DNA of 64,000 nt, from NCBI GenBank assembly GCA_051362555.1, contig CM120640.1, positions 9,672,001 through 9,736,000 of the forward strand. The letters are read 5' to 3'. The translations under genes were made by a program, and so were the position numbers. Each line of letters starts with the position of its first letter. The stretch's first letter is position 1. This document shows, one piece after another, positions 11,501 to 51,525 of this stretch. The notes beneath the pieces are model-generated. The model searched no databases, had not been told where the DNA came from, and was given only the letters and a program-made list of their open reading frames with translations. Origin of the DNA: Lingula anatina. Its lineage: Eukaryota; Animalia; Brachiopoda.

Positions 11501-11596
11501 AGTTTTAAGCTCAGAGGAAATGTTTCATGATTCATCAACATCTAGTTATGCATATATAATTCACCACCTGAAATTTTGAAGTATAACATTCTGAAT

Positions 11597-11757: not shown

Positions 11758-11772
11758 TTAGCTACATAATCA

Positions 11773-13020: not shown

Positions 13021-13071
<51 letters not shown>

Positions 13072-13314
13072 TAAAATAACAGTTCAAAAACCATTAAAAG
13101 TGATAAAAACAATTCAGTGCCCCGGCCCAGGTTACAGGTATGAAATCAGGTGTGTCATGAAAACTTGCTCTCAACTCTTTGTCAGTTTTTGTATATTTTC
13201 TGTACCAAGAGATCAGCCCCTTATTACCTTCTGTGAAAACGAGGGACCCAGTATATGTACCACTTCTTCCAATTTCTTGACATTGCCGGTCACGAAGGTA
13301 ATTGCCCTGGACAT
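11773..13314 (-). CDS. ITPA: Inosine triphosphate pyrophosphatase, 3 exons (13314-13228, 12849-12657, 12068-11773), 191 aa
   Basis: [66 protein letters not shown]. Splice phases are consistent (87+193+296=576 nt). Confidence 0.97.
12115..12271. mobile_element. MITE, same family as 11597-11757, in ITPA intron 2
   Basis: CAGGGGCAGATTTAG...CTGGATCCGCCCCTG with 5-bp TSD GTGTT on both sides. Confidence 0.75.
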
Positions 13315-13567
13315 GTTTTACTGCAAAAGGAGCACAACACCGCGCGCGAAAGATTCTGACCTACTTTTTAATTGGGTCAGTAGCGCAGTTTCGCACAAAT
13401 TCTTTTAACAAGTAAACAAATCAAATCACTCTTTAAAATCAAGAAAAATAATTTATACTACCAGAAAGTTAAGTATTAACCACTCCACTAATTTTATTTC
13501 ATATAAATAAGAAAATATTTTCCGTGTTTCATTTCTTTCTAACTTCGTATGCCCATATTTAGCTGCA
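13315..13567. promoter_or_regulatory. Bidirectional promoter shared by ITPA and SMYD5
   Basis: Divergent start codons only 253 bp apart; E2F-like TTTCGCGC on the minus strand near 13344-13351. Confidence 0.75.
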
Positions 13568-17747: not shown

Positions 17748-18619
17748 CACAGACGGGGAAGTTTAGTCCTGTATTTGGAGTAAATATATTTCAACTGTGG
17801 AAAACTCACCATAGCTGCATGTGCATCTATAAGTGAAAATTGTTCAGAATTATAATGAAATTGAATGAAGGCATGCTTAGAGTGATATTTATCATACAAA
17901 AAAAGAGCATGATAAAAGTGATAGAATTGGTAAACGGTACTATAAAATGAAATAGGGGTTAGACATTAGCAACATCAGTATATTACATAAAAGATACAGA
18001 TTGCAGAAAATAACACGGTTTAAAAATGTCAAGTCTGAGGTCATGAAAACCATTTGCTTTATGATATTTCTTTCAAAATGTAGGACTTGTTTACAAAGTT
18101 TGCAAATGAGTTGATGTTTTGCATGCTCTGCAATTGCAAACTACTTACTAGTAGGTATATGAATGAGCAAAGTGTTTTTCATTTGAAAGATAATGAATCT
18201 ATTATATTTAGTTTAAATATTTCACATATTTTTTTTTGCTACTTACCAATGCGCTTTGTGCCTTATTTCAGTGAGGATTTTTAAACCTTTTCTGAAAGAC
18301 TTAACTCCCCTTTATAAAAAAAATCAGTGCGGTGTCAAAAAGCTATGATATGCATTTTTATCTGTAAATTGCCAATTTGATTCAGTAGTGCATAGCTTTT
18401 GTTACTATCTCGGCTTGTATGGGCTCACTTACTACCACAGAATGTGAAGCATAGTAGCATTCAAGTCCTCAACTTCAGCATGTGTTTCCCCAATAGGTAA
18501 TCTTAAAGGCCTTGGGTATATTCATTTGGTCTTCTTTTATTTCTTGTCCCAGTGGTAATCCATTGCACCACTGTGTTCAAGCATTCTGCCAGTCCTCAGT
18601 GCTGTCTTCTCTCCCTGAT

Positions 18620-18735
18620 GGTCAGCCCATAGTTTTTGCAGATGTCCCTTGAAAGCCTTATTCAGGCTGACATTGAGTGGTTGAGCCTTTGAAGTACACC
18701 CTCGTGGACTGACTGCCAGGGTTGCATTAGTTTGC
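18620..18735 (-). pseudogene. pogo/Tigger DDE transposase fragment
   Basis: TLAVSPRGCTSKAQPLNVSLNKAFKGHLQKLW resembles the pogo motif VIPGGCTSxLQPLDVxVNKPFK. Confidence 0.7.
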
Positions 18736-19257
18736 CTGGCCTCAATTTATCTGGCTGATTCTTGAACATTGGATCATATCCTGGATAATCTTTTGGGATC
18801 AGGTCCTCTGTATTGCTGAATTGTATAAAGGTTTCAAATCTGTTAAAAGATCAGCAACTCCTTGTTGAATGTTTCTGTCAGTGTTTCAGTTTTAAGTGTT
18901 GCAGTGTGAGACCACTGCATGGGTTTACTAGCCAACTTTGTAATCAGACCACACGGGTTCGTATGGATCAAATTCCTCATGTGCCTCCCAGTTATATATG
19001 TCGGATAGGAAAACACATGATTGCATTCTCTAGTCCATTGTGCCACGAGAAAGTGGCGTTGGGTATATTATATACAAGTTCAGACAGATGAGAGTTACAT
19101 TTATCTGCCTGTCTGTTAAACCGTCTGTCTAATCAACCTATGTTTGACGTTTGTTGTTGCGGGTTCCAATGGATCTGTTGAACTTCTTGTAGGCTGTGCT
19201 GCTGTTTATGGGGGGCCTGCTGGATCTAGTGAGTGTTTTGAAGCCTATGCTTTTGTT

Positions 19258-19288
<31 letters not shown>

Positions 19289-19569
19289 GGGGTCCAGTGT
19301 TTTGTAGCCCTTGGTGCTTGTAGCAGATTTCCAAGTTAGACAACACACAGAATCGTCTATGGATTATAAAGCTCTTTATTCTTGATGATCTTTCAGAAAC
19401 ACTGAGAAACTGATACTAATGAAAACTAAAGAAAAAGAAAATAATACTGTTTACACAAAGTAAATACACAGAGAAATAAAACAATTTAAATGATACAACT
19501 ATATAAATTTTAAAAATAATGATACTAATACTAAAGGAGATTCACTGGCTTAACTTATACTCTTATCCA

Positions 19570-20010
19570 GCAGTCTCTTATCCAGCTGCCTCAGTCTTGC
19601 CATTGGCACTGTGATGACCTGGTGAAGTAATTTCATGCTGCACACAGTGGTCCAGCATCTATTACCACAATTCTTGGTATTCCAAAACGAGGAATCTGCT
19701 TCTTTAAACATGTTATAGTGCTCATGCTTGTGGTAGTGTGCAGATGACCGACTGCAATGAAATTTGAATAATGGTCAATGACCACAAGGATCTGTCATCC
19801 ATCAATCTCGAAGATATCACTAGATATTTTATCCCAGGGCGCATTTCCATCACTTTGTGATATCAATGTTTCTTTTTAATTGCCTGGTCAGAGTTCTTGA
19901 CATTGTGCACAGGTCTCAACAAGCTGTTTTATGTCACGTGACTAACGTGGGGTACTAACGAAGGTGCATGTCACATATCTCACCATAGTTTGCATTCTTT
20001 GGCCATGGAA
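19570..20010 (-). pseudogene. Ty3/Gypsy integrase fragment with stops
   Basis: DIKQLVETCAQCQE...PWDKISSDIFEIDG*QILVVIDHYSNFI...RFGIPRIVVIDAGP...SPGHHSANGKTEAA. Confidence 0.85.
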
Positions 20011-20759
20011 ATTAGTGCAACAAATTTCCTCCATCGATAACAAATTGTGTATCACTGGTAAGACCATGTCCAGCAACACAGAGGTGCAATCTTCAGGAGA
20101 CTGTGTATAAATTCTGCTTTGTCTCCTGTTCACATGCACAATGTGTGATCAAACAAAGGAGGACATGAGCACAGTTCATACTGAAAAAGTTCCACCAAAA
20201 GGAATTCAATTCACCTTCCCCCATTACAAGTAAACTTTAGGACAGGCACTATAGATCCATGTCAATTCTTTTACTAGAGGGAAGTTTTGCATATTTGGTT
20301 TTTGATGGCATCATTTAGATGCTGATGGGCATCTTGAATGAGCCTTTCTAAATTTAATTTCAGTGTGACAATTAAGAGGCTATTGCCACTCTGTCTCCAT
20401 AATAGATGTACAGCTGTCGCTGAAGAGATTTTTTGCAGTAACCTTTGTCACACCTGGAATCAATTTGCATAATCTCATTTTATCAAAGGTGACAGTCCCA
20501 TCATTATTTTCTAAATACTCAACAACTTTCATGAATAAAGATTGCTTATTCACATCTCTCTGACCAATGATGAAACCAATACAAAAAAAAAAAAAAAATA
20601 GTACATGCATTCACACTAAACATATTTTTATGTAGTTAACACAAAAATGATATGCATTATTATTTATTTATATTATTGTTAAAAAAGTAGATAAAAACTC
20701 TTTATGTAATGGTTTGAACCACCTTTTTAAAACTTTTAAACTGCATGCTGATGGACCCG

Positions 20760-22555
20760 CTTTCAATTGGAGTTTCAATGAACAATCTCTAGGCGATACC
20801 AATCACAATCGCGTTTCTGATTTCTTCCTCCTTGTTAGTAAAGTTACAGTTAGTAAAGTTAGTAAAATTCCACTAAATTTCTGTAGAAAGTTTCATCAGA
20901 TTCTCCAGGTAAGTGATGACGCTGGTGGAATTTTGCTCTCTCGTGTATTACATTCCTTCTTGGAATGAAATACTCATTGTTCTGACCGTTGACTATTGTC
21001 ATCAGACAGCATACCATACAACACAACACGTCTTGTTGAGATGTAATAGCGGTAAACTTTAATAAACAAAATGTAAGTACAAAGACAATAACAAAGTAAA
21101 CTTAACAAAACTATTTTGTCTAAAACTGAAGGCCAATTACAGTAACACAGTTGAAATGATATTAAGAATGCTCTATAAAACTAAACGGTAATAAAGGTAA
21201 GCAATTTAAAGAATGTTTTTTGTACTAAGCTTAAGTGCAATACCATTTCACAATACAACGTACATGTATCTGTTCTATATTTAAGAGCATTTACAGTACT
21301 AGTAAAACCAATGTAAATTCTTACAAAAAATGGTGTCACCGGCTTAAACGTGCAAAGCAGTACTGAAAACGTGCTACAGATTTGCAATGACTGAAAACAG
21401 GAACCTAAATAAGTTCGCTGACACGCTAAACTCTTAAACGATATCACTTGCACCCTGACGCTAATACAGTAAGTTTGCGCTAAGCTAAATAGCCGTTCTT
21501 CGATCGAATATGGCTTTTACAGAGGGTTTATACAATGAAATACACCAGGTGAATCGTAGTGACACATTGTGTAAGCGAAAACAAATACGAAATCACCCTC
21601 ACTAAATCAGCATCGTTACAAGATACTGAACGCTAACAAAGATCATCGCGGCAGCAATTTAAGGAATGTTTATAAACTAAATCGTATAACTAAATATTAA
21701 AACAACCTTGCTACTCTATAAACTCACTTTAACTTATCAACAAAATGAAAATGCTTACTTTAACTCCTATGGTTGAGATATGTCTTTACTGTAGAACTAG
21801 AACGGTGTGTATCTTCTGAGTATCGTGTGAGTGAATGAAGAACGTTCTAAGAGTAACTAAGTAATATCGGGGTTACTGGCCAATGAAGTCCGGCCGACAC
21901 CCCTCACGAGATTGAACACGCCACTACCCATTACACAATAATTTAACCCCAATACAGTGAGAGCGCTACGAGGCTAGCGAAGTGAAAGGGCTACAAATTC
22001 ACGAAGAGGGGTCTACAAAGCTATACGTAGTGTACTATGCATTCTCCTGCATTCTCCTAAAGCTATTAAATTAGTTTCAACACACTCATCGAACTTAGCA
22101 ATGGCAATGTCAACATTTTCTGACTCGGGCTTACCTTCTTCCGTGGCCTCTGCTGTAGACAGATTAAACGTTGAAAATATTTGCTCTGTGTCCCTCCCCA
22201 TGGTGTATATTAAAGCAGACACTTGTATACTGGCCTCAGAGTCCAGTTTGGTAGCTCTCCTATATCGCATGAATCATTGGCACCATTATGTCCACTCGTT
22301 TGGCACATTGAACTTAAAGGAAGATTTAATTTTGCCATTCCTCTCTTTCTCTCTTTCTCTTTTGCATCTCCTCTCTTTCTCTCTCTCTAGTACCTCTCCG
22401 TTTTTTCACAGCATTTCTGACACCATGTCATAGAATGGCATAAAAATAAAGACAAACATGCTGTACAAGCTGTTCATACACGTGACTTTATTCTACTTCT
22501 TCTAACTACATACAGATGGCGCTTTAGGCCAAGATGTAACCAATCATATATGACA
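20760..22555 (-). mobile_element. 5' portion of a Gypsy LTR element (LTR 22555-22426, PBS, decayed gag) interrupted by a solo LTR
   Basis: LTR TGTCATA...TATGACA; PBS TGGTGTCAGAA (22425-22415); gag QVSALIYTMG...KFDEY|FIPRRNVIHERAKFHQR...IRNAIVIGI. Confidence 0.85.
20978..22084. mobile_element. Solo LTR (1107 bp) inserted into the Gypsy gag; orientation undetermined
   Basis: TG...CA ends and 5-bp TSD CTCAT (20973-20977, 22085-22089). Removing it restores KFDEYFIPRRNV in frame. Confidence 0.8.
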
Positions 22556-22799
22556 CTGACACTCATTGAAGTCACTGGCCCTACTCTGGCACCATGGAGA
22601 TTACTCTCTGACACTCGAGAAAGTCACTGGCCCTAATCAGATACTATGGTGAAAGTCTAAAGGAAACAGTGTTAATAGGGGGGTTCCTGTCGACTTCATA
22701 AACAATTTTGGTATTCAGCTTTTATCTTGCTTGCCTTAAATAAGGGGGGCATGCCTTTGCAATTACTGCGCACTTTGCCACACGCACCAATATCCCTGG

Positions 22800-22950
22800 C
22801 TTGTTTGGGCCATATACATTTACCAGTAAAAATGTGTATTTGTTTCTATTAGGACTTTGAGAATAATGAAGTTTCTGCGGTTGTCATTTTTTTATTTGAG
22901 GACTTTAAATTCAAAATTATTATTAAACAGTATTGCTGTTCCTTTCAAGT
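22800..22950 (-). pseudogene. L1/Tx1 endonuclease fragment
   Basis: KGTAILFNNNFEFKV...NFIILKVLI (frameshift) FLLVNVYGPN. Confidence 0.75.
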
Positions 22951-23034
22951 CTGGACTGGACTGAACCTGGACCGGAAAAAGTTTTGTAGCCCAAGAGGGG
23001 ACGAATATTATTCACTGTAAACAAAGTGTGAAAG

Positions 23035-23170
23035 ATTAGGGCAGTCCAGATTTCTTAGCAACTGTATTCAACTTTCAAACTTGTAAATTGCTATGCCCTC
23101 ATGAACAATCCAGTAAACTGATTTCATGGCTGCTATAATTGCTCCATCTTTACCTAAATGTTTTAAGTAT
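23035..23170 (-). pseudogene. hAT (ZNF862-like) transposase fragment
   Basis: AAMKSVYWIVHEGIAIYKFES*IQLLRNLDC resembles the YWLAKEEIxxxKFxSL motif. Confidence 0.55.
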
Positions 23171-23229
23171 TACAGTTAAATATATATGTATGTATGTGTA
23201 GGTTGATGTTAACATTATTGTCAGATACA

Positions 23230-24050
23230 GTACTGTATTTCGATGCAGCACCAGGTTCTCTGGCTAACCCCCTTTTCATTGCCTGTGTTTGTATTTTTCT
23301 GGTAGATTGTAACTGTTCCATAAACTTTCTAACATCTTTTTTTTTCTCTCTCTCTCAACTATGGGGCCAACATTTGAAGCAGTGATCCTCCCTTTCTGAA
23401 GTTTGTGCCATAGAGGTGTCGTTCTTTGTGCCCTTGTTTGTACCTCAAACTTTATGATATCATCTTCGGCCAACATAAGCTCATGGATGAAAGAAGTCTG
23501 GGTTCTAGATAGACACAGAGACACTTCATTAAACATACATGAATTATTGCAGACTCTGACTGGGAGGTGAGGGAAACTAGTATCTGCAAAATTATTAATA
23601 ATATATTCAGATGATATTTGTCGTTGGTAGCTGATGGGGCTGCCACATCGAAACTCCATATTTAGTTGTGGTGAGTGGAGTGTCTTGAACTTGGCTGGTC
23701 ACGAAATCTAAAATCATGGAATTTGGATGAGCACATTCAACAGCATTAAACAGAAGGACTGGGGATGGCATTTGACATCTGATGGGGTTGTACAGTGTAG
23801 AATTTCTTGACTGAGGTGGCTTCTCAGTTGTTTATCTGATAATTCATGTAGCTTGAAACCTCAATGTCTTGAACAACCTTACCACCAATTTTTTCTCCTC
23901 TTGGTGTGCTCCATGAGCAGGGCAGTGATGTCCTTGCTACGTCCTAAGGGACCTGCCGTACTCCCAGGGCACTTCTGTTTTACATTGAATGCGTTAACGC
24001 CTGCATTTTCTGAGATTTTCGCCGCTTGTTTTTCGCTTGCCTCCATGGCT
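23230..24050 (-). pseudogene. YqaJ/lambda-exonuclease-like gene remnant (DNA-transposon cargo)
   Basis: EVQTRAQRTTPLWHKLQKGRITASNVGPI...MKRGLAREPGA matches TRxQxxxxxWxxxRxxRITAS...GxxxEPxA. Confidence 0.7.
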
Positions 24051-24179
24051 TATCCTATGTCAAGTGCGCGCGCCAATGTCAAATTCGTGTCAGTTAGTAA
24101 CTTCGTTCTCAGTTTTCTAGAGAAACAATTGTCAATGATTTGATCTTTTATAAATTCATCGATTTGATTAACCTCAAAA

Positions 24180-24794
24180 TTGCATTCTCTTGCTAGGGAG
24201 CACAGTCTTGTTACGAACTCAGTAAGTGTTTCCGAGCCGCTCTGTCTGGCCTGGCGAAAAATATGCTGATTGTAAGAAATGTTTCTTCTTGGTCTAAAAT
24301 AATTGTTGAGCAGATCAACTGCAACATCAAATGCATTTGCATTTTCCTCTTGTTCGTCATTGGGGTTTTCCAGCGTATCGAAGATTTCTTGAACTTCGAT
24401 GCCGGCACAGCTGTTTCTTTTGCTCTACATCTACGCAACCAGTGGCTACAGCGAAGATTTTGAAGCTTTTCAGCCACCTCTCCCATCTAGTAGCGATGTT
24501 ATTCTGATCACTGTGTGGATCAAACTTCTCAATCGATGGTAAATTTATCGTCCTCGACATAATCTTCAATTTTTTGTAGAATCTCGGCAATATTTCTGCT
24601 TCTTTGCACTTTTACTGTTTTCACCTCGTCGCCAATGTGATATTCTTGTTATCAAAATGAGAAGGCTAACGCAGTGGAGGTTTACTTACATACGCATTCA
24701 CTTTATTTCACTACACGTGGACACTTATAGTAAGCGTCTGGGTCACATGATATATGATTATAAATTTATGAGGATACTACATCATGTTATCACT
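24180..24794 (-). mobile_element. 5' portion of a second Gypsy element (LTR ~24794-24636, PBS, decayed gag)
   Basis: PBS TGGCGACGAGG at 24634-24624; gag RWERWLKSFKIFAVA...GIEVQEIFDTL...NYFRPRRNISYNQHIFRQ. Confidence 0.8.
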
Positions 24795-24989
24795 AGGCAG
24801 ACTGTACTACTTGGGCCAGTGCTGCTTGTTTCAATACTTATAAAAATGTGTAGGGTTCTAGCTCTACAGGTCCCATAATTGAACAGCTTTATTGTGCAGC
24901 TGTGAAGAACTACATGTATTCAACCAGCTTGAGTCCATTGGGCCCCCATTATCCTGATAAGGGTTAAACCAATACTACCCAGGTGCTCC

Positions 24990-25285
24990 CTAGCACAAAT
25001 ATATAGGACCAGCCTCTGCCAGTCCTTTTGAAGCTGTTCTTTATATCCACGGATGGTGAACTTGGCAGGGGGTTTCCTTCAGGGAGGTGTTCCACCACCT
25101 TGCCACTGTCATATGTCAGGCAGTATTCTCCCTCTTCCATTTTATGCCCATTGTGAGCTCTATGTTTGGCCAAACTGGCCTGCAAAGTTTCCTCTGTAGT
25201 CCAGCTTGGCCTTACAGGCACTTTCAGGGTCTTCCCCCTAAAAGGCTTCAAACTGCCATTATTAGGAATGAGAATTCCCACTCTG
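24990..25285 (-). pseudogene. Exon remnant resembling the N-terminal region of transposon-associated G2E3-like HECT genes
   Basis: LKPFRGKTLKVPV...YCLTYDSGKVVEHLPEG (frameshift) YKEQLQKDWQRLVLYI. Family recalled by pattern only. Confidence 0.4.
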
Positions 25286-26184
25286 ATCTGAAATACATGC
25301 GTGAAAAAGTAACATTATTCTTCTATTAGCATTAGATGCGATTTCCATAAACCACTAAATATTTGGTTGGATTAAAATATTTTGATAAATGAACATTCAG
25401 GGAGATTTCATAGTGATTGGATTAGATGACATTAAATGTAGGCAGTCATGCTTCTCATTTGTGATATAAAGTAGTTATCATGAACTTAGAAACATAAAAA
25501 TATTTTCTCATCCAATTTTTTGTCTAGTACCTGAATGGATGGTAGTGGCAGATTAAATTCCAGATAACCAAATGTTATGTGGTATATAAGATCCCCTAAA
25601 GAAGACTGGTTTAATTTTTTCAAAAAGTACTGAGACCTCAAGATTTTTTTAAAATTTACCTTTTAACCTTTTTAAATCATTACTTACATTCACTTCAATG
25701 TCTTTCACTGAAAATCTGGATTTCTTGTTTATAAAAAATGAGTTTCTTTCGGTGTTCCTCTTTTCTCTCATTTTTTTTAAATGTTTGGAGCAGCTAGGGT
25801 AAATCTGAAATAAAGGCAAATTCAGAATACATTTCAACAATCAACACCAGCCACAATGTTTAAAGGAAGGCACCAAAATAGGTGAAAGTACTTTAATTTT
25901 TAAATTTCAAGTTTTAAACCCAAATACTCAATCTACATGTATGTAATTTGACCCTGGCTAACTTAAAAATTGATGCCATTATATTGATTATGAAGATGCA
26001 GTCAGGGAATTGCAGCTGTACTTTATAGTCTTGAAAATTCTTATTTCTGTCTTAATCGCAATTAAGCTGCAATAACCCTTAACTTAATTATTCTGAGGAA
26101 AAATAAAGTGTTTTACTCTATTCTAATAGCAGTAACATACACTTCTAATACTTACTGAGAGTATTGCCTGGTCCTTCTGCTTAA

Positions 26185-26407
26185 TGCCCCTATTTCACAC
26201 AGACCACGAATCCCACGAATCGCCAGAAATCGACAAATTTCAGGATTCGAGGTTGAATCGTAATCAGTTCATGAAGTTCTTAGAAGATTCGTATATATTC
26301 GTAGTCAGTTCTTGCAAATCTTGATCAATCACGATTCAACCACGAATCCTGAAATTTGTCAATTCCTGGCGATTCGTGGGATTCGTGGTCTGTGTGAAAT
26401 AGGGGCA
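26185..26407. mobile_element. Palindromic Tourist/Harbinger-like MITE
   Basis: TGCCCCTATTTCACACAGACCACGAATCCCACGAATCGCCAG... mirrored at the other end over about 80-100 bp; TAA TSD. Confidence 0.85.
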
Positions 26408-29400
26408 TAAGTGAGGCACTGTGCTTGTAGTTTTAGTCAATCTGGAGATCTAGAACAGCGTGTGCGTGTCTTAGCCGCTTGAGATCTGCTGGGATATAGG
26501 GCGTCACATGGTATGCTGTTACTTTTTCTGATTCCAGGATTATAATAAAAACTAAAAGTTAACAAGCTATGGCTGCCACAGACAACTGTAAGTTTAAATG
26601 TTAAGTCTGCTTATTATATGCAGCACCGAGGGAAGCTGAAACTTTTGAAAGGCTTATATAGCAAAATAAACTGTACATGTAAATTGGTTTATGTGTATTT
26701 TTCTGACCCTAGCACAGAGATTTTTCTCAACGTAATTTGAATTAAAACTTTTTAAGACTGGACTGTACTTTTCTTTTTCTTTTATTATTAATATTTCATT
26801 TTGATCTGGTTCTTTTTCTCTTATGAATTGCTCAACATTTCTCCCAAAAGAGGCCATACTGTTCATGTGGTGTAATAAGGTGAGGTACTTAGTCATATAG
26901 TTATTTGTTTTTTTACAGTGCATGCTTTCAATGACATTGATGACATTGATGGCAAGCAAAAAAAGGACCTTTTTTGTTGAACATGTTGGGTTCTAGAAGC
27001 AAGCCTCTATGTCCACCAAATCTCTAAATGGGCCCCACAGTCCCCCAGTTTTCAGAATGCAGATGCATGATAGTCCATAAGGTCTGGCAGAAAATTCGTC
27101 TACACATGATTTTCCATTTTCACAAATCACGAATGTAAAATATTTTGAGTGTTATGAACTCCAAATGTCACAAAGTAATTATTTTTGGGTCTGCTAACTT
27201 CATATTCCTTGCACATATGTCATTTGATATTTGTTTTTTTATCAATGTGGTGAGTTGGCCAGCCAATAGTAGCAGTCAAATTGACAACTACTCTCCTGTT
27301 ACCTTGAACATTACTATCAATGGAAGACTAAAACGGCCTAAGTAAGTACAGGGCTGCTCCAAAGCCAAGCAGGTTCCTACCATAAAGCCAAGGCCAAATT
27401 AGCCTTATTACCAGCAATATAAACCTTCCTATTGGTTAGAAGGGTATAAATTATCCTGAGAAGACAAAGAGTTACGCTTTTTACTGACCATTTATGAAAA
27501 TTTGGCACATTTAGTGTGGTTAGTGGCCTTCAATATTTATTAATTTATAATCTTTTTATCAAAATCTGTAAACAGAAATTACACTTGCGAAAATGGAAAT
27601 GGTTTAAAACAATATTGAGGGACACCTTACAGACTATCACTGGTATACTTAGTTATAATCTGAGTTTGTTTTATTTACTCATTAAGTTGCTACTTACCTT
27701 CCTTTTTTGGCTCAAGGAAGCTGAGAGTTGAACTGTTGCCACTAAGGCCACTTACACCAGCTATGGCTGCACTTGCCACATCTACAATAATATTACCAAA
27801 TTATTAATTAATATATTAATTGATATATTGTTGTTTAAATTTTAAAAATTGGTGAATGATCTATTGAAAATGAAAAGGAGATAACATTATTATTTCAATT
27901 AAGAATGACATTCTTAAATTGCACCCAGTTTTGTCTGCATAACAAATAAAAAGACTGAAAACAAGTCCAGCTAATATAATAGATTTGTGAGGCCAATAAA
28001 TTATAAATAAATCTTAATCATATGCACTTAGCTATATGCTAGATAATATAACTTATATTTAATGTCTTTAGCCTTTATTATTCAAAATAATCAGTATTTT
28101 AAAAACTGTATCAAAAAAATTTTAAATGTCCTTCCCAAACACTATTTGACACTTTTTCTGGATTAAATGTGTTCAAAAAATCATAGTTAATTATCAAACC
28201 TAAAGTTTCTTTGGGATTCTGGTGTCTGGTTTCAGAAATTATACATTTATTAGCGGACCAAATCCCACAGAATGGCTATTACCAGGTTATTAGCAGTCTC
28301 TTGGAAATACCCTGTGATTTTAATCTAAACTTATGAGCAACAAACCAAGTAAAGTACCTCACCAAGACAAGAAATGGATCCCTTACATTTACACAGTCAA
28401 AATTCATCGATATTATTGGAATAATCTTGTAATTTTCAGGCATGAAAAGAGATTTGTATTCTGCACTAAGATGTCACCTTATAACCATAAAAGTCTGAGT
28501 CCAGATAGGTAGAACATGTTAGATAGATAGAATATGCTTTACTTTCCTAAATTAATGATATCCAGAACCTATCTCTGTTAGAGTTTTCAAGCTGTCTGCT
28601 TTTAATGGCAGTGGTGTCTGCTATTAATGGCAGTGATTTGCCACAAAATGTGCAGCATTAAAAATTTTCAAACCCATAGGGCAATTCCTTGCCACAATAG
28701 GGACAATACATGGTATCACGCTGAAAGTATATAATTTTTTTTAGAAATCATAGAAATCACCCTAAAAGACTTGCACCGTATTCTGTAGACATGGGGAAAC
28801 TGCTGGTCTAATTGGTAATGACCGCCTGAAAAGCCAAATGACCGACAAGAACTTTGCCACAAACATTTCACAGCTATCCTGATTTGGATCAAGAAATAAC
28901 AGTGATTGGGAAGGTTTAAACCACCCATGGGACAATGGCCCCTCCTGGGTCACCCTAAATGGGCCATTTTGCATATCAATGGGCCATTGCTTGACATTTA
29001 TGGGCCATTTTTAAACATGACAAATATATTTGAAATATCTGTATCAATATTTTTGGGAATGATATGAGAAGGTGTTGCAGTTAAACTTTGTTAATATATT
29101 TATTTAGTTAAGACTTTTATTTGTCTTTTTCAATAAAACCATTACAATGCCTTCTTTACTGAACTTATTTGAAGACTAAATGAAAAAACAAAATGATCAG
29201 AAAACATGTAATACTCATTAGTAATTGGTTTTTATTTGATGAAACCATCAACAAGAGGTAAACAATCTAGATCTCTGAAAACCTTGATTTCTCAAAACTG
29301 AGAAAATGTAAATGAAGTTGTCCTCACATACTGTCTAGTACTTATTAATCAGTCTTACTGCAAAGAGATTTCATTACTTAATGAAGTAATCTCTTTTTCC

Positions 29401-30229
29401 TGTGCCACACATTCAGTGCATCCTCATAACTTATCTTACTCCCAAGAATCTTAACTCTTAGCAGGTGATTCGCAGAACATTTTCGTTTGGGTGCTGTCGT
29501 ACTGGAGCTAGGGCCATAGTTGAAGCCATCGGGGTTTGAAACCTCGTGCTAGCACTAGCAGTAACACTACTGTCAGTGTCACTACTAATCGTCGTAGTGC
29601 AAGGAGCGCTGCTCTCAGAAGTTGGTACATTTTCTTCCCCCGTCTCCTTTGAGACTTCTTTCTGAACGTTGGACGGACCCTTAGACGAAGCGGTTGAAGT
29701 ACATAAACTAACAAATGTAGGCTGGTCTGGCGAGATTTTAAAAATTTTTTTCGGCGGCATTTTTCTTTTCACTTCATCAAAGTGCTGCTTGAAAAAATCC
29801 CATGTGCTTTCAGAACGAAAAGCAAGGTTACTTCTAATTGGATAAACATGACCTATTAACTGATGGGCCAATAAGATATCAGCTTTTATTTCATTAGCAT
29901 AGCTATTGGGGCGATGAGCTCATTGCTCTCGGCAAATACCATGCATAGAAACGAATCATACATAAAAATCGACTAACGGACCTGCAGTTGTCTCTGTGAG
30001 TTTTTCTCCGTGCGTTTTCTTTCTGTGGGTTTTCACGGCTTTTCCAAGATGTCCGCACCGAAAGAGGCATCTATTTCTGTCGTGTCAAGAAGTTTATGTG
30101 TTGTGTTGCGATTTTCTTTGGTGTTGCGTCGATAAGTTAAATGCATTGTGTTGCGATTTTTTTTTTTTTTAGTTGTGTTGAGATTGTGTTCGGTGTCGTG
30201 TTGAGTGTTTTGGTTGCTTGTTGTGGCAC

Positions 30230-30970
30230 TTATACGCTTCCTTAGACTTGACCTCACTGGAGAATCTCTTCACTGTCTTTGCTTGCTTCAGTGCCCAACC
30301 AACAGAAACACTTTCTAAGCCTAAACTACCTGACACAGCACCTGTCACTCGTACAACTCTAGGCACTCTTACTTCCCCCAACTTTTCTGCCCATCTGACC
30401 TTAATTGTGTCATAAACAGTTTCCGTTCTTATTTCCATGGAGTGCTGGCCAAAAGCAATGTGGTTATTGAGTTCCATGTCAGAGTTGAAGGTTTTCAAGC
30501 CAAAGGATTAGCATTGAAATAGTTAACCTTTCCCTCCGATTAAGTGAGCTAATACTGTGTCATTAGATTTTCCTGTGTCGTTCCGTGTGCGAAAGTAAAG
30601 TTAGCAAAAAGAAATAGAGAGAAAGCCTTTTATATGCTGTGAAATGAAAACTGTTCAGTGCAGGGTGTGGTACAGGCATGTGACAGTGTGGTTATGTAAG
30701 TGCGGTGGCCCGTAACGTTATAATCAGTAGAGTGAGAGAGAGAAAGAGAGAGAAAATAAAGCTGGACAAAAGAGAAAGAACGGAAAATGTGCTGCGCATG
30801 AATAATAAGTAAACAAAGGACAAACTCAGATAAAAATAAATATCACGGGCAGTTACAATCTTATTTACCTGAAATTATCCATCTTGGCCCAAGGATACTA
30901 CAGCAGTCACTTGCCACGATATGCCCTTCTTGGCAAACCATTCTTGCTGGCTTTCTCTAAATTTCCTCTT
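30230..30970 (-). pseudogene. DNA transposase remnant (possibly Sola3-like; family uncertain)
   Basis: KFRESQQEWFAKKGISWQV (30965-30905) followed by LNNHIAFGQH...VGWALKQAKTVKRFS. Confidence 0.5.
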
Positions 30971-31557
30971 GCCTATATGATTTTCTGCCTGGCAAGATCT
31001 GTCTAAAAATGGGAGTGTCAAAAAAGGAACACACATTTTTTTTCAAGTGCTCCCAACATGCCGCATGCATTGGCTGCATTACACAACACGCCTCATTCTG
31101 GATTTACATACATTATTCATGAGTTATTCAGGATAATATTAAGAGTGGAGAATTAAACAACAGAATGATGTTAATTTGAATGATGTAATTTTTTGGCAAG
31201 ATGTGTCCTACAAGTACTGTTGTCACATAGTCAAACAGAAACTTTAAGGTTGTGCATCACTCACTTATGTGAAATTTGTGAGAATCAGCTGAATACTTTA
31301 GTAAGAAAGGTGGCTGACATTTCTAATATTAGATTACCCATAATTCAGAGATAAAGGTAGTATGACCAATTTTCATGGACTTGGTGGGAATATTCCTATC
31401 ACGTTTCATGAAAATTAGTCCACTTCTGGAAATTTATCACTTTGTGAGGTTGTAATCCTTCAAAAGGTTTTCCAATGCAGTGTGGTTAACTGGGGTAACA
31501 ATGCTCTGGTCCAAAGGTAAAGCAGGCTTATTAATTTGGATAATTTCCTGAATTGGG

Positions 31558-33048
31558 TTAGATGAATTTTTTGTGGAATTTGGGTCTGAAAATTTGGGAT
31601 TTTTGGTGGCTAGAAAAGTTGTTGGGGAAGGGTTTTCTGGGGTAAGGGAAAGTGGAGTGCCTGGCTCCATTTGAGCGGCATAAAGAGAGGGGGTGGTCTC
31701 TGTTGCACAGATAGCATTTGTGCTGGTATCTGCAACGTGTGAATGAGCATTTTCCTCTATTGAAGTTTTTACAAACCTCGGGGGGGGGGGGGGGACGAAA
31801 ATTGTCCAATTTTGGGGTCCCAAGTGAGTGGCCATAAACTACCGGGTCTTCCTCTTCCCATTTGATGCCTTCGCTGGCTCGTTTTTGACGGAATCTTTCG
31901 TCATAAGCCCTCCAATTGGCTACTTTATTTGGGAACATCGCGATGACCCTGTGGGCATAGACTAAAAGGGGGATGGCTTGGTCTGGGAATTTTTGCAGGT
32001 AGATGGCCGAGAAGATTTGCCATGCTTGGCACCACTGGAGTGAGGTCAGATCAGATTTTTTGAGGGAAGGGGAGAGGATCATCATGATCTGGCCTTCCTC
32101 GTTTCGTTCAGTCTGTGTAGAGAGGTTTTCAGTTTTATCCTCCCTGCCTGGAGCCAAAGAGTCAGGGGGAAGGAGGTCTTTTAGGTTTATGAAATCGTCA
32201 TCCCAAATTTTCAATCTCAATTTATTGTTCACGTGGTGGTCTATTGGGGTTTTGGGAATTTTCTTACCTTGGGGGTCTGGAAATTGAGCCGATCCATACA
32301 TCAAATCATTTTGTGGCATCTGTGGAGCAAAGTTTTGGTGAGGCATTTGGTATGGGGCGGTGTAATGGGGGGGGGAAGGTTGGGGGGGCATGGAATTTGA
32401 TTGAAAGTAGGGGGATGGGTTCACAGGGAGACCCATAGCTGGGTTGGGAGGATAGATTGGGCCTGTTTGGGACACAGTTGGGGCCACTGTTGTTTGAGAG
32501 TGAGGGAGGTTTTGATATGGGTAAGGAGAGAAGTGAGGGGGGTTTGCCATGTTTGTTGTGGACTGACTGGGGGGTAGGCCTTGAGAGGAGGGATGGGGGG
32601 TATTGATACCGCTGGGACCTGGCTGGGGGCCTTGGAGGAGCGAGGGAGGGGGTGGGGCTAGGCTGCTTCCCATATGATGAACATATGGGAGGCTTTGGGA
32701 GCTTGAGACTGAGTAGACTTGGGGGCTTGTTAACGGGCGAGGCTGCACCGAGGTGGCTGCTGTTGTTGCTGTGCTGGGGACCGATGGCTGTGAGTTCCCC
32801 AGAGTGCTTTGAACTAGGTTGGTCACTGTGGCCGGGTGTGTGAAGAAGGGTCTGCTGGGTCCCGGTGTCGTCGCGGTGGTAGCTACTTCCGCTGTTTGGT
32901 TATAGGTTGGAGGCTGTGGGTTCCCCAGAGTGCTTTAACTTAGGCTGGATGCTGGGGCTGGGTGAGTGTTGTAAGGGGTGCTGGGTCCGGGTGTCATGGC
33001 CCAGAACATCGCTTCTCCCAGTGATGGTAGACCTGGGGGTTGTTCCAT
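31558..33048 (-). pseudogene. DIRS/Ngaro-type gag with one in-frame stop (32937-32935)
   Basis: ATG at 33048 is in frame with the 422-aa track ORF. Pro-rich N-terminus; HVNNKLRLKIWDDDFINLKDLL; WCQAWQIFSAIY; WRAYDERFR; CKNFNRGKCSFTRCRYQHKCYLCNRDHPLSLC. Confidence 0.8.
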
Positions 33049-33688
33049 GATTCAGAGCTAAAATGAAAGAAAGGAAGAATAGACTCCGTATGGCAGAGAA
33101 AAGAGAGATAGTTGAGCCCTGCCAGCTCAGAGAAAGGTAATTAGTAAAGAGTAATAGGGGGTATGGTTAGTGACGTTGCCAGTGCTACTAGCATGATTCT
33201 AATTATAGAGCAGCGTATGTCATAAAAGTTGAATGTAAAACTCAATCGTGCTGATTGAAAATGAAATGATATGAATAAGCAGTTTACGAATTGTCGGCGC
33301 ATGAGTGGTTATATAAGTCAGTATGTGTATTCATAGAATTGTATATGCTCGCCTATAAAGAAAGGAGCGGCCACGTGCTGCGGCCCTGTAATTAGTTTTA
33401 TGCTACAACGTGTAGCATGTATTAACAATGGGCGGCTACCTGCTGCAGCCAAATGTTCTAGGTGTCAATCTAAGTAGCGGTGCCGTGCAGTGCCTAGATA
33501 TAATGTGTCTATTGTATAGTTTGATAATACATTTTCCGGGTGCATGCAGCGAGTAAATTATGTGTAATTTTCTGTGAACCCTTTAAAAATCAATTACTAG
33601 TGATATTTGGGTGATCTTATGGTAAGGGAGGCTTAAACTATATTTAGTTTGCAGCAAGCTGCTCTCATACTAGCTGAGAATTTATAAT

Positions 33689-34306
33689 CTATGAAGCTGA
33701 AGGTATTTTCCCAAATAGCATTGAATATGCCAACTTACTCTTGCTTACGGTGAGCACAGCACCTCTGAACGATCGCCAGAGCATGTTCGAGCCTTTCGCA
33801 TTCATATGTACTCCGTCTGGTAGTAAGTTTCCTGCCCAGTTGACGGTGGCCCCCACGTGGCGCAGATAATGAATATTATCCTGGCCTTTAAAGTTTTCCT
33901 TCATGGCAGTGTTGACTTTAGCTACCGTAAGATTGTATCTGTCTTGGTCCTCTCTAGTTGGCAGGTAACCACAGCTGGGGGAGGATCTGTAAAGCAGTTG
34001 GCCCCAGAACATTGTTAGGTGGGGGAAGCGCTCCAGAATCCTGAGGTTCAATAATACGATCTTGTCCATCATCTTTGGCGGGTCAAATGGTGATCCCCTC
34101 ACATCGTTTCCTCCAACTTGGAACAGAAGCACATCAGTCATCCTTAGGGTGTGGAAAAAGTCCTCGCTCTGTAAGAAGTGTTCGATGCGAGCCCCACTCT
34201 TTCCATAGAAGATGACATGGTTCAGTGATGGGTCCAGGTTGAGGTTTGACGGGGAATCCTGTTCCAAACGTTTGATAAGGCTATGCCCAGCAATGACAAT
34301 TTTCAT
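33689..34306 (-). CDS. SGNH/GDSL hydrolase (retroelement esterase type), ~205 aa, intact
   Basis: All four blocks present: IAGHS, GKSG, QVGGND, DGVH. Confidence 0.85.
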   Translation of the reverse strand: MKIVIAGHSLIKRLEQDSPSNLNLDPSLNHVIFYGKSGARIEHFLQSEDFFHTLRMTDVLLFQVGGNDVRGSPFDPPKMMDKIVLLNLRILERFPHLTMFWGQLLYRSSPSCGYLPTREDQDRYNLTVAKVNTAMKENFKGQDNIHYLRHVGATVNWAGNLLPDGVHMNAKGSNMLWRSFRGAVLTVSKSKLAYSMLFGKIPSAS

Positions 34307-34505
34307 GTTGAAAGAGGCTAAGGAGTACACTAAGGTGTCTGAAAGAAATAGACTAGGATATAAGCATGCAATGTCTATGTAACTAATTGTCTGGAGTACA
34401 GCAAAATCAGATTTTTTTTTTTTTTTTTTTTTAAATAGACTAATAGACTAGGATATAGGCATGCAATGTCTACGTAACTAATTGTTTAGAGTACGGCAAA
34501 ATAAC

Positions 34506-34549
<44 letters not shown>

Positions 34550-35694
34550 GTGTGTTGTTCATGTGCGTTTGAGCGCCTGTAAGTGTTGACATGCTTGTAA
34601 GGCAACAGGTGTCTGTTGAAATGTTTGAAGAAAGGCTAAGCATGCAACTAATTTCCTGTCAAAATAGACCTTAGGTCATAAAGGCTAATGATGTTTGGCC
34701 ATAAAGATTGTGATCTTTGGGAGCATGATCCCTTGGAGTCGCTAAGTGACCATCCGCCATGTGTTGGTAATTATCGGTTATGTAAGCGGAGAACGCTGGC
34801 GCCATGTTGCCTTGTGTTATGAATAAGAGCTGCGAGTTTCGGAGCAGCGTATGTGGTGAATACATGGGTACTGGTTTCCGTATTTTGGGTGGGCAAGTAC
34901 TAAACAGCAATGAACCTAACTTAGCGTCGGTGTGATGGAACTAAGCAATGTATCGCCGTGAAAACTGAACTAAACTCGATTGTTGAGGAACGTTCGCCAT
35001 ATTGGATGACTAAATTATGAGGCGGAGTTTATGAAACTCCTTTTAACTAAGCGAAAATAATCAACCAGGCAGATTGTTATAGTCAAATGGCCTTAAAGTC
35101 CTGTCGGCACCACTTTAGGAGGGTTTCCCTGTCGAAAAGAGAGTAACGTAAGAAATACAACGTGAGAAATTCCCTTGTGCGTACCGCACTGGATAAAGTT
35201 TTAAAACGCGGCGTATATAGCACGCTGTTATTGCTACACGCATATAGTGTAATAGATAATCTAGTCTGGGTAAAGTGCCGAGAGGATTTTAGCAGCCTAA
35301 AAATTGAATCACAAGGATTTGTCGCTTACCCTTACTTGTTATTCTGGTACACTGGTCAAATCGGTAATGGCTGGTTGAATGCGTCTAGTCGGCTTGGTGG
35401 CAGACTAGCAAGTGATATCCTGGGTATTGCCTCGATTAAACCTCGCTCTATTTGGTCACGTGGTACGAAACTCGCGACGCGATTTGTTACATTGCTAGTC
35501 ATATGACTTATGATGTAATATTGTTTACAACAGCAACTGCAGGAAGCGACTCAGCAGTGACCCCTCATCTTGATAAATCCGATTATGGACAGGCAATAAT
35601 CTTTATGTACTAATTTAATTGTTACAATTGTGCACCAGGCTTTCTTAGATCACTGCCAGTACGTCTCATGTCTGGCTATAAACAATGTAGACTA

Positions 35695-35900
35695 ACCTTT
35701 TCACCATCCTGATCTATTTTTAATGGATTTTGTATGGGCCTGATGTAAGCTTTTGCCTGAACCAGAGAATCTCTTAGATTTTTTGGTGTGTATGGCCCAA
35801 GCAGGTCTTCCAGAGACTTTGTGTCATTTTCCACTGACAAGATCTCGATTCCCCCAGAATCTTTTAGTTTCGGATATTCACTTTCTGTAATGGTTTCTCT
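35695..35900 (-). pseudogene. Second G2E3-like/HECT-associated N-terminal exon remnant
   Basis: YPKLKDSGGIEIL...YTPKNLR...QAKAYIRPIQNPL. Pattern recall only. Confidence 0.45.
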
Positions 35901-36329
35901 GCCTCTCACACGGTTCCCCACAGGTTCATTATCAATTCCAAACTTCATAGCAGGTGTCTCTATGTTCTTTTGTTTGAGAGGCTGAGTTGCAAGAGTGTCA
36001 TGGTTAGCTCTTCTCATGTAAATGTCTTTGAAGTGGGAGAAGTCAGGTGGTGTTTTCTCAAGTCATGCCAGGTTTTATTCATGCTCTGATTACGAGTCTC
36101 CTTTTCAATATCCATTACCCCATTACCCCAGTCTGAAAGTCTTGTATAGACATCATACTCCTTTTGAAACACAAAACTGAACTCCCTTGTGTAATGTGGA
36201 AATTAGAAAAAGGTTGATTGACATGATTTATGATATCAGATGTCTTCTATTTTCTGCTGATAAGCCAGTGGAGATCATGCGGGTACCGTGCCAGATGTGT
36301 GGTTTCAGTTATGTTGCTTGCTCTCATTT

Positions 36330-36520
36330 CACAGATGAAATCATGCAAATATTCCTTAATATTTGTGGCTTACTATCTTTACTAAAAAGACCAACTGTAA
36401 AAGGCAAGAATTGCTCTGTATAAGCTAGTCTACAAAGAATTGACCAAAACTGAGAATTGGAGCTTCTTAACGAGGGAACAGCATCAATATTGATTGGAAT
36501 ACTGACTTTATCAATGTGCA
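36330..36520 (-). pseudogene. EnSpm/CACTA-type transposase fragment
   Basis: INIDAVPSLRSSNSQFWSILCRL...PFTVGLFSKDSKP resembles NIDGLPLFKSSxxQFWPIL...PFxxGLFxGxxKP. Confidence 0.7.
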
Positions 36521-36619
36521 AGAACTTGGCTAAAGAGTATCACCAATCTGTGGTACCAAGCTTTGTTTAGTTTTTTCAGGGACATGTGGGCTTCATTTTC
36601 TGTTGGATTTCTCTATTCC

Positions 36620-38680
36620 CCATATTCTCCGTATTCTCTTTCACTGCAGCCGTATGTCCCTCACTTATTTGGTGGTCCTTTATTGTTGTCCTCTTGAAAT
36701 TTGTGCATCCCAGCACCAAAGACTCCTTTGAATATTTCCTGGGCATTCCCGTCTGGCAACTTAACAGTACCAGTGTTCTCCACAACTTGAAATTATAAGG
36801 TGGGGGAAGAGCAGTTATAGTGAGGGTCTCCGGAAGCGAGGGCCAAAGGAACTCGCCATGCTAGGGGGGTCCGGGGGCATGCTCCCCCAGGAAAATTTTG
36901 AAAAATTGGTGCAAATACCTGCATTCTGGGCAATTTTAGAAGTCTAAAAGGTCATTTTTATGGTAAGAGAATTCATCATTTCTTTAATGATAACTATGAT
37001 CATTTTGTAGATGTTCCTGTGTCAAGTTTTACTTTATATAAACAAAAGTCATGGCTCTGAATTAAAATTCACTTTTATTTTTGAATAAATCTCTGAAACA
37101 TACGGCATTTCACATTGTTTTTATGTGAGAACTGTGAGACACCTGATGCATGGTGGACTGTTTATGTCTCTTAATAGTGTCTTCTCTGTACGTCTGGCAC
37201 CCAACTTTGGTCCAGATGTCAGTGCCTTTCTTGGACCTTTGACCATGGCTTGAACACCAGGCACAAAACATACCTGAAACAATGCATTTCTATGGTTAAA
37301 CAATGGTATTTGATGTTTATGTAGCATTACATAATAATTTAACGTCGCAACGATCTTCCGTCGGACATATATACGATAGCATCGACGTTGCTGCCTTTGC
37401 CCTGCTCTAAATGACTGTGAATGAACTTTTATTGATATTTAAATTAACAAATGGGTTCAAAGTCTCGTAAAGCTTCTCACATTTTAAAAATAATCTAATC
37501 ATTCCGGATTAAAAACGTATGAATACATCATCTCATTGGGATTGCTCACGTTCAAGTGGATTGCGGGAAGGGCAGGTCTAATATTCAAGACTGTCAATCT
37601 ACTTCCTTATACAAGCATAAAGGCGGGGTAAACGGAGCACGTGACAAAACCAGCCTATCCCAATGCAAGACTACTTTTCACAAACGTCATTCATGAAGAG
37701 CACATGGTCGAAACTGGCTAAAACTGCCTATGTGATTGGTAAATGTACAATGTATCTTTTCGATATATTAGCGACCACGTTTTCTTGTAATACGAAAGAA
37801 ATACATATGTATTAAAGCAACATCCCTGACATTAAAGTGATTGGTTTGGTTTTATTTTCCAGTTGCATATAGATTCCAGTAAGTAATGAGGTAACAAACG
37901 CAAGATATGGTGAAATTTATAAAATTTTATAACGTTAATGATGAATAATGTAGTCAACTTACCTTCATCGGGTTCATGTCAAAGCCATGTATACTTCTTC
38001 AACCACGTAGCGTAAAACTCCGTCCTATGTTTGGATTTTTTAGGTGCTGGTTCGCTGGTCGTTTCGTCATTTACCTGTACGGATGTATCCACTAATTTGT
38101 TTGATGAATGTGACTCTCCGTGGGTTTTAAAAAAAGACGTCAACGTGCTCTGCTTTGACGCCATTGCTTAGAGATCTTACGTGTTTCTATATTTAATTTT
38201 TTTTTTTGCAATAAAATTCTGTAATAGTCGGTAGATAAGGCGGGGTAAATGGAGCACTTTGACAAAATCAGTCTATCGCTATGACTACTTTTCACAAACG
38301 TCATCCATGAAGAGCACATGGTCCAAATTGGCTACAACTGCGTACGTGAGCGGCAAATGTACTATGTATCTTTTCGATATGTTAGTGTCAAAGTGATGCA
38401 AAAACGACAGTCAAGCCAATCAAGTTCAAGTTTAATATCTCACTTTTCTACAAGAAAATAATCTGAAGGTCTGCTCATTGCTCAAAATAATGGTGGCGGG
38501 CCGTTTACATAAGGTGGCACAAAACTCAATAAGGTGGCACAGCGCCACCTGAAAACAGGTCGTAGAGAACACTGAGTACTAAGGGTTCCTTAGGTCGACC
38601 TGCAGGCCTGACAAAACATGGCCTTGCAATCATAAATAGCCCACAGAACGTCTTTTTCACAAGCTGTTTGAAAGGATATT
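36620..38680 (-). pseudogene. Older hAT TTF-type zinc finger remnant split by the hAT5-like insertion
   Basis: FQTACEKDVLWAIYDCKAMFCQACRS (38672-38595) continues past the TSD into ...GCTNFKRTTIKDHQISEGH (below 36770). Confidence 0.65.
36771..38574 (-). mobile_element. Internally deleted hAT5-like DNA transposon retaining a two-exon TTF zinc finger
   Basis: TIR CAGTGTTCTC / GAGAACACTG; 5-bp TSD AGTAC. Exons MASKQSTLTSFF...WLKKYTWL*HEPDEG and MFCAWCSSH...WTKVGCQTYREDTIKRHKQSTMH. Confidence 0.8.
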
Positions 38681-39749
38681 TCTATTTAATTACTTTATTA
38701 TTATTTATTTATTTTTTATTTTATTTTATTTATTAATTTATTATTGTTATTATTTTTTTTTTTTGAAAAGTTGTCTTTAATAATGAAAAATGCTTTGCCC
38801 TGATATTTATACTTCGTTTTTTCTACATGTTCTGTCAAGATGTATTGAAGATGATCAGTAGTTTGGCTTTGCTGTAGTGTATCATCAGTTTTGACCACCC
38901 ATGCAAGTTTTTAAAAAATATGGATGTTTCATAGAGCTGTCAGGATACTGAATCTAACTGAGGGTGTATATCTGAGTATCATCTGCAAAAATTTGAAGCC
39001 AATTTTGTGGATGTGTAATTTTTCTAATTGATATAGTGTAGGTGCAGAATTTCAAATATAAATTTTAAAGATGCACTAGCAAATGAAAAACAACTACTAC
39101 TTATGTGGAAGTGCAGTTATTTAATTATGCATTTGAACCCTTGGCTTAGATATCAAGGAGGAAAGTGTTTGTGTCAGAACTGTTTTGATAAGAATGACAC
39201 TAAAATGAAAGATCATCTCTTTTATTATTTAACTTGCCTTTTTTATTTAAAGCTACTGCTTTAGCTTTATACATCATAGTGCAAAGACATTGTATATTTT
39301 CATTAGTGTTTTACAAGAAACAGCCATTTATCCTTTAATTTTGTCTACCAAGATAAAAGCTGAGGTTACTGCCATTTAAATATAATGGCATCAATTTTAC
39401 ACGCAATTTACTTACACTTTTTGAAATTAAAAGAGCGTGAAATAAATACAACTGTACTAGTCTTACAATTTGTACATAATGTCTATTTTTTTTTTAAATA
39501 AAATTTGACACCCAACTATCTTGTTGTGATTACTCTTAAAATAAAGGACCACATGTTTATAACTGCATTGTTATTAAATTGTGCAATATTTCTCAGTAAA
39601 TAAAGACATACGTTCCCCAGTGGGTCAACTGAGAAATTATCTTCTGGTTTACACAACTTATGTTATCTGCTGCCTAGGCAAAAAATTCCTCACAGACTGC
39701 AAGACTAGGAAATATTTATTCTCCTGTCTAATGGATTTTGATTCCATGC

Positions 39750-51449: not shown

Positions 51450-51525
51450 TTTTAACGGTAGCAGTTGTCAGAATAACAGTCGATATGCTAACAGTTTTTG
51501 TGCTTAGTGCAACTGTAGTAATCGT

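Follow-up and report, generated by a model that had tools for sequence, protein, structure and literature searches.

Between a SMYD-type gene and a convergent Skeletor-like gene in the brachiopod Lingula anatina lies a block of ~20 kb filled with mobile-element fragments, and the minus-strand bias of these fragments is real. We consider the block likely to be a source of PIWI-interacting RNAs (piRNAs) of some kind, including the variant in which it has a promoter of its own, and we lean modestly toward the more specific reading that it is a candidate single-strand source fed by read-through from the SMYD-type gene. The window analyzed is a stretch of 64,000 nt (contig CM120640.1 of assembly GCA_051362555.1, positions 9,672,001-9,736,000), and all coordinates below are positions within it. 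An earlier note on this DNA had proposed a flamenco-type transposon trap driven by a gene it called SMYD5; the evidence here for its identity consists of SET and MYND domains.

Orientation of coding pieces in the block

Every stop-free frame of at least 36 amino acids at 17.9-39.2 kb was scanned against Pfam on both strands. Mobile-type families were matched at E<0.01 by 7 of the 136 minus-strand frames and by none of the 144 plus-strand frames. The minus-strand matches were to rve (3e-5), Viral_alk_exo (0.008 and 7e-4), Retrotrans_gag (2e-4), GDSL (2e-6), and zf-C17orf113 (2e-5 and 7e-8). Weaker matches on the same strand were to DDE_1 (0.11) and YqaJ (0.033), and one further minus frame matched an unrelated family (ACT_6, E 0.0086). 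When stops were read through in 24 frames from four sub-regions, the sole addition was Integrase_H2C2, and a PHROGs search of selected frames, 29 from each strand, produced a single mobile-type match, a transposase on the minus strand. By eye, no mobile piece was seen on the plus strand among frames of at least 30 amino acids, and Rfam and tRNA scans returned no matches. A search for primer-binding sites with 13 motifs yielded two exact matches, both on the minus strand and each directly ahead of a gag piece; matches with one mismatch fall on both strands.

The same bias appeared in a library-free codon model, whose training set was 2,282 codons from outside the block and whose null was 100 shuffles. 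At a score of at least 8, the model found 16 minus-strand segments against 3.6±1.8 in the null (at most 7 in 100 shuffles), and 2 plus-strand segments against 2.5±1.4. At a score of at least 10, there were nine segments on the minus strand and one on the plus strand (null 0.8 for each), and this sole plus segment overlaps a minus-strand gag open reading frame (ORF). Training on host exons only gave 14 minus (null 1.6) and 6 plus segments (null 3.5), while training only on a long interspersed nuclear element (LINE) was weaker, at 12 minus segments against a null of 9.0. Because the model caught just three exon segments of the SMYD-type gene at a score of at least 6, short plus-strand pieces could be missed. 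Still, the fear that plus-strand fragments had been overlooked by eye was borne out neither by Pfam nor by the codon model.

Our orientation tally covers coding pieces only. After pieces of the same element were merged, every one of the 12 elements with tool support is on the minus strand (two-sided p 4.9e-4), as are all 16 when four pieces recognized by eye (piggyBac-, Academ-, L1/Tx1-, and EnSpm-like) are included (p 3.1e-5), where both p-values assume a 50:50 expectation, are uncorrected for scan size or window picking, and lack a genome-wide orientation background. The 12 are a pogo-like piece, a Gypsy integrase, gag A, a first YqaJ piece, gag B, the 5′ part of a HECT gene, a hAT-like N-terminus, an unnamed coding piece, an SGNH-plus-gag piece, a second YqaJ piece, and two zinc-finger pieces. 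The pogo-like piece, the hAT-like N-terminus, and the unnamed piece are backed mainly by their codon scores. This confirms the earlier description of a minus-only, diverse, and fragmented block downstream of the SMYD gene.

It is highly improbable that nothing more than a common transposon graveyard is present here, appearing one-stranded by chance and because the best window was selected from a large scan. The seven Pfam matches alone give a p of 0.016, and the absent genome background, the four by-eye labels, and the missable short plus pieces all leave room for this explanation. However, in the library-free codon test the plus strand shows no excess and the minus count is higher than in any of the 100 shuffles, the tool-supported tally is uniform, and the RNA is concordant in strand over 18-29 kb.

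The block is also dense in mobile-type matches compared with its surroundings: its ~21 kb hold seven Pfam matches at E<0.01, and the remaining 43 kb of the window yield a single element, a LINE (p 0.003). Of 473 flank frames of at least 40 amino acids, 413 were scanned; the 60 omitted were from a 146-bp satellite (8) and from ITPA and the SMYD-type gene (52). The flanks yielded this LINE and one weak MuDR match (E 0.024), both on the minus strand, but they are a poor background for orientation because they consist mostly of genes.

Plus-strand RNA and the putative driver gene

The putative driver, a gene with SET (3e-10) and zf-MYND (3e-4) domains and an acidic tail, occupies 13585..17747 on the plus strand. 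Its GT..AG joints are supported by stranded RNA and its stop codon lies at 17745-17747; its start coordinate was set by eye. The layout suits read-through in that the gene is expressed on the plus strand and the first minus-strand piece begins near 18400, within a plus-strand 3′ untranslated region (UTR) or run-on zone (17748..19480). No AATAAA occurs on the plus strand from the SMYD stop to 19475, and the first ATTAAA is at 21696.

We aligned RNA from four runs carrying the same species label to 11501-31500, reading 6-25% of each run; judged from ITPA and the SMYD-type gene, all but X7 (thus X1, X3, and X4) are stranded. Plus-strand RNA is present, sparsely, over the first 10 kb of the block. 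Across 18171-28842, leaving out a bin around a miniature inverted-repeat transposable element (MITE) whose reads stem from many loci, the three stranded runs contained 1,447, 947, and 273 nt of plus-strand RNA (~2,670 nt, ~9-10 fragments) and 0 nt of minus-strand RNA. At 18524, inside the pogo-like piece, there are six plus-strand poly(A) reads (four in X1 and two in X3); the best SMYD junction has six in each run. A one-base insertion is present in every one of the reads at 18524, which may therefore derive from another allele or copy. Read-through from the Skeletor-like gene, which would make the pieces sense, agrees poorly with the reads at 18-29 kb.

Several observations weigh against read-through from the SMYD-type gene. 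RNA past 18.8 kb reaches ~1-2% of SMYD exon depth, and these ~9-10 fragments could be explained by ordinary run-on or by reads from other copies. None of the four runs has coverage at 18838-19504, with scattered reads beyond, and over 11501-31500 no listed splice joint and no read connects the last SMYD exon to the block. The RNA also comes from individuals other than that of the window, as indicated by fixed single-nucleotide polymorphisms in ITPA. At 28843-30176, minus-strand RNA (~1,610 nt, mostly from X4) exceeds plus-strand RNA (~830 nt), although these minus reads differ from the window by fixed differences, which suggests that they may come from other hAT-like copies. Thus, of the expected plus-strand transcription, a few fragments, all plus-strand, were seen at 18.2-28.8 kb, with a minus-strand majority at 28.8-30.2 kb. 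The proposed ITPA/SMYD5-driven read-through drew support from plus-strand RNA over the first half of the block and lacked any read joining gene and block.

Alternatively, the block could be a unistrand piRNA source that is transcribed in flamenco style from a promoter of its own, for example in a long terminal repeat (LTR) near 19.4-22 kb, with the SMYD-type gene a mere neighbor. This would produce an equal strand bias, and both the zero depth before scattered reads and the AATAAA at 19475 are in line with it. Yet antisense pieces begin ~650 nt past the SMYD stop, plus-strand poly(A) reads lie on the first of them, and no promoter evidence was found, so we regard an independent promoter as unlikely.

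To a similar degree, we doubt a reading without any piRNA role, in which the block belongs to an extended 3′ end or a non-coding transcript that was purged of sense insertions because they shortened the RNA. Antisense bias of elements within transcribed units is established, and the RNA here is low-level and plus-strand. But 15 of 15 minus-strand pieces would have a probability of 0.005 under a 70% bias or 0.035 under an 80% bias, and purging leaves unexplained the many families here vs almost none in the neighboring 43 kb. Plus-strand AATAAA signals are not depleted in the block either (17 vs 14.3±3.9 expected), which counts against purging and against read-through alike. GTRAGT motifs resembling 5′ splice sites show a mild plus-strand excess (18 vs 10.2±3.1); this was one of many tests and was not used.

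If the SMYD-type gene does feed the block, a share of its transcripts would pass weak 3′ signals and enter the block, where PIWI/Zucchini processing could generate phased piRNAs with a 1U bias, antisense to ~16 families. Such piRNAs may then direct slicing or silencing of sense copies elsewhere. Insertions would occur in either orientation, with selection keeping antisense copies, which deletion trims, and losing sense copies. We propose that this selection is why the bias is common to DNA transposons and retroelements. Because cut-and-paste transposons share the bias and have no known common orientation preference, selection on antisense RNA rather than insertion is indicated.

Piecemeal assembly, inventory, and neighborhood of the block

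Nested inserts with target-site duplications show that the block received repeated local insertions. Gag A (20874..22440, minus; 34% to gag B in tblastx, codon score 11.6, motif resembling a primer-binding site at 22425) is split by a solo-LTR-like insert of 1,107 bp at 20978..22084, which has TG..CA ends, a 5-bp duplication, and no assigned orientation. Likewise, an intron of the HECT piece holds the MITE (26185..26407), which has long inverted arms, a TAA duplication, no orientation, and multi-locus reads. The HECT piece retains introns and therefore arrived as DNA. Of three pieces searched for protein relatives, two (HECT and gag-like) have L. anatina relatives on other contigs, with the limit that the 96.6% gag relative is possibly the same locus in another assembly. 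Given the nested inserts, the gene-piece origins, and the lack of shared termini, the block was built by repeated insertion and deletion. The anatomy of a transposon trap thus stands, resting on a one-strand bias seen by two independent methods, on the nested inserts, and on the relatives of two pieces.

This mode of growth also bears on whether the block could be a single composite mobile element (Helitron-, Pack-, or Terminon-like) that was inserted as a unit with co-oriented captures. Co-orientation, the SGNH ORF, and captured gene pieces with introns all speak for such an element. However, no terminal repeat of at least 14 nt links the block edges, no convincing Helitron end was found (the hairpins preceding CTRR-T motifs are weak, ~-5 kcal/mol), no helicase or reverse transcriptase was seen with Pfam, and the inserts with their own duplications indicate piecemeal arrival. 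We therefore find a composite element quite improbable.

All remaining coding pieces are on the minus strand. At the SMYD end, a pogo/Tigger-like transposase piece (18400..18746; DDE_1 weak, codon score 9.1) is contiguous with a piggyBac-like piece (18695..18950; codon score 7.4, PDB search blank), and the two adjoin without a spacer (18400-18950), as though joined by deletion. They are followed by a Gypsy-type integrase piece (19620..19945; rve 1.8e-5, Integrase_H2C2 0.039, PHROG transposase 2e-4), an Academ-like piece recognized from its translation without a database match (19960..20560), and, beyond gag A, a piece resembling an L1/Tx1 endonuclease (22750..22880), recognized by eye from its VNVYGPN motif with no relevant match in the PDB search. 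YqaJ-type exonuclease piece 1 (23166..23860; Viral_alk_exo 0.008, YqaJ 0.033, codon score 8.3) precedes gag B (23882..24640; Retrotrans_gag 2e-4, codon score 18.6), which carries a motif resembling a primer-binding site at 24634.

The HECT-gene piece (24980..28711), defined by tblastn and splice sites, is a truncated, frameshifted, and spliced 5′ third (amino acids 1-209 of 660) from which the HECT domain itself is absent. What had been counted as two HECT exons is one truncated spliced gene, with three exons matched by tblastn and a fourth identified by eye. The piece is 74-90% identical to L. anatina LOC106174263, an intact HECT gene that sits on a 1.03-Mb contig, and one relative (P0131) is fused to an rva_4 integrase. 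A link between IS3EU elements and HECT genes found no support in our literature search.

Farther along are a hAT-like transposase N-terminus (29381..29898; family assigned by eye, codon score 10.8, no Pfam match) and a coding piece at 30172..31103 (codon score 10.5) for which homolog and Atlas searches were blank. A DIRS/Ngaro-like piece (31561..34306) combines an SGNH/GDSL ORF (33692-34306; GDSL 1.9e-6) with a gag-like ORF (31561-33051). The latter has two L. anatina protein relatives, 96.6% and 47% identical to it, and neither is on the contig that carries ITPA. Atlas values for this piece were 0.96-0.97 to unnamed eukaryote clusters, no reverse transcriptase or recombinase was seen in it, and a metagenome scan with the SGNH ORF gave 56 pattern matches, none of which was confirmed. 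In this piece the gag-like ORF is downstream of the SGNH/GDSL ORF, an order that could reflect the junction of a tandem or a circle, a pair of elements, or some other layout; amphibian Ngaro elements are described as carrying their SGNH/GDSL ORF after the recombinase (10.1101/2021.08.05.455354, accessible text). Directly upstream of the SGNH ORF, at 34347-34547, are two 95-nt copies that each end in a long T run (an A run on the minus strand).

The distal end contains YqaJ-type exonuclease piece 2 (35679..36202; Viral_alk_exo 6.7e-4, codon score 22.3), an EnSpm/CACTA-like piece recognized by eye from its translation without a database match (36250..36420), and a zf-C17orf113 zinc-finger piece (36579..36860; 2.1e-5), which we presume to be hAT-associated. 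The last piece is the 5′ part of a hAT-like element (37113..38575, ends set by eye) with a terminal or subterminal region, exon 1, an intron, and a zinc-finger exon (zf-C17orf113, 6.9e-8); a direct repeat of ~150 nt (37620-37780 and 38237-38394, 85-87% identical) flanks its exon 1. Several pieces in the block are the 5′ parts of elements, including LTR plus primer-binding site plus gag, hAT-like starts, and the HECT N-terminus. The labels Sola-like (for the piece at 30172..31103), EnSpm, L1/Tx1, piggyBac, and Academ are based on motifs, and no database search confirmed any of them. The list in the earlier note was right to include YqaJ, of which there are two pieces, and omitted the piggyBac-like and Academ-like pieces.

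By Pfam, the gene order across the window is a LINE (minus), ITPA (minus), the SET and MYND gene (plus), the block, two Skeletor-like genes (minus), and a CSTF_C exon (minus). ITPA has three coding exons at 11776..13314, supported by tblastn to L. anatina ITPA (94-99%), Ham1p_like, and spliced reads; one exon matches the L. anatina protein at 98% identity, with the next best matches at ~72%. It stands head-to-head with the SMYD-type gene, and the mere ~270 nt (13315-13585) between their start codons suggests a common promoter; ITPA reads outnumber SMYD reads several-fold. In L. anatina RefSeq, a near-identical pair of ITPA proteins (P0001 and P0124) with adjacent accessions comes from a single 202-kb contig, and the window contains one copy. 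A 140-bp repeat occurs twice in ITPA, once in the 3′ UTR (11616-11757) and once in an intron (12134-12271), and both copies draw many reads from other loci.

The convergent Skeletor-like gene that closes the block (39750..47754, minus; DM13, DOMON, and At5g54830-like by Pfam) is in tandem with a second of the same domain content and strand at 52200-58500, and a Thr/Pro-rich repeat exon lies at 51500-52130. At the opposite end of the window, a LINE (3-2925, minus) is probably of recent age; it has long open ORFs of 563 amino acids (running off the window) and 299 amino acids, with an endonuclease ORF at 3-1691 on the minus strand (Pfam endonuclease, 1.4e-11). A repeat family at 3996-10135 and 62945-63109 contains internal 143-146-bp tandem arrays, GGC-rich 9-mers, and inverted and tandem copies, and these repeats are reminiscent of Helentron-derived HINE elements.

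Comparison with known piRNA clusters

The public L. anatina assembly has a GC content of 36.5% and 31.7% repeats, and the accessible main text of the genome paper does not mention piRNA or Piwi (PMC13121700). Our literature search, whose scope was papers outside subscription, found no read-through antisense piRNA cluster in Lingula or any lophotrochozoan. The piRNA pathway is retained in almost all Lophotrochozoa (PMC11114477, whose main text as accessible does not contain "Lingula"), and the comparisons below likewise draw on the accessible text of each source. Tentatively, and at somewhat less than even confidence, we suggest that brachiopods may use gene-fed, one-way piRNA traps against DNA transposons, DIRS-type elements, mobile cargo genes, and LTR elements. 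If so, read-through clusters of the sort known from mammals and mosquitoes would also exist in a third bilaterian branch, perhaps as an ancestral route to transposon immunity, and such clusters would be recognizable from genome sequence alone. Confirmation would establish a read-through piRNA cluster in a spiralian and make the question of an ancestral route testable.

Strand-biased transposon density has foretold real unistrand clusters in flies, in 2 of 2 testable candidates (PMC10643416). Drosophila flamenco and flam-like loci share with the Lingula block a strong one-strand bias, fragmented elements, and discovery from genome sequence (PMC10643416). However, flamenco spans hundreds of kb, has a Gypsy-only bias (PMC10643416), and uses its own promoter (10.1101/2022.08.22.504762), whereas the Lingula block is 20 kb long, with three Gypsy coding pieces among ~16 and a bias common to many classes. 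The claimed flamenco-type likeness therefore fails under the strict definition (>100 kb, Gypsy-only bias) on both size and bias.

Among other invertebrates, snail clusters, which are spiralian like the Lingula block, show enrichment of Gypsy elements and of DNA transposons, hAT among them (PMC6128900), and slug clusters are mostly unistrand (PMC11615739), but neither upstream-gene read-through nor an all-antisense layout is reported for molluscs in the accessible text of these papers (PMC6128900, PMC11615739). Sea-anemone clusters are also mostly unistrand (PMC5731801), and Capitella piRNA loci are <20 kb (PMC8915122). As a probable new member of a known cluster type, the Lingula block would have an unusually broad and DNA-transposon-rich element mix.

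Mosquito core clusters are unidirectional, as the Lingula block would be, and they start just past a conserved, often lowly expressed gene; they are traps with species-specific content and are enriched for non-retroviral viral inserts, none of which we recognized in the Lingula block (10.1101/2022.08.22.504762). Mouse piC-DoGs share dense antisense transposon fragments right after a gene's last exon and a span of tens of kb; they use the host promoter, as the Lingula block would, and are backed by piRNA and RNA-seq data, with L1 and endogenous retrovirus content (PMC11615739). By contrast, DNA-transposon and DIRS-type pieces dominate the Lingula block. On these features, the Lingula block would be closer to mouse piC-DoGs and mosquito core clusters than to flamenco.

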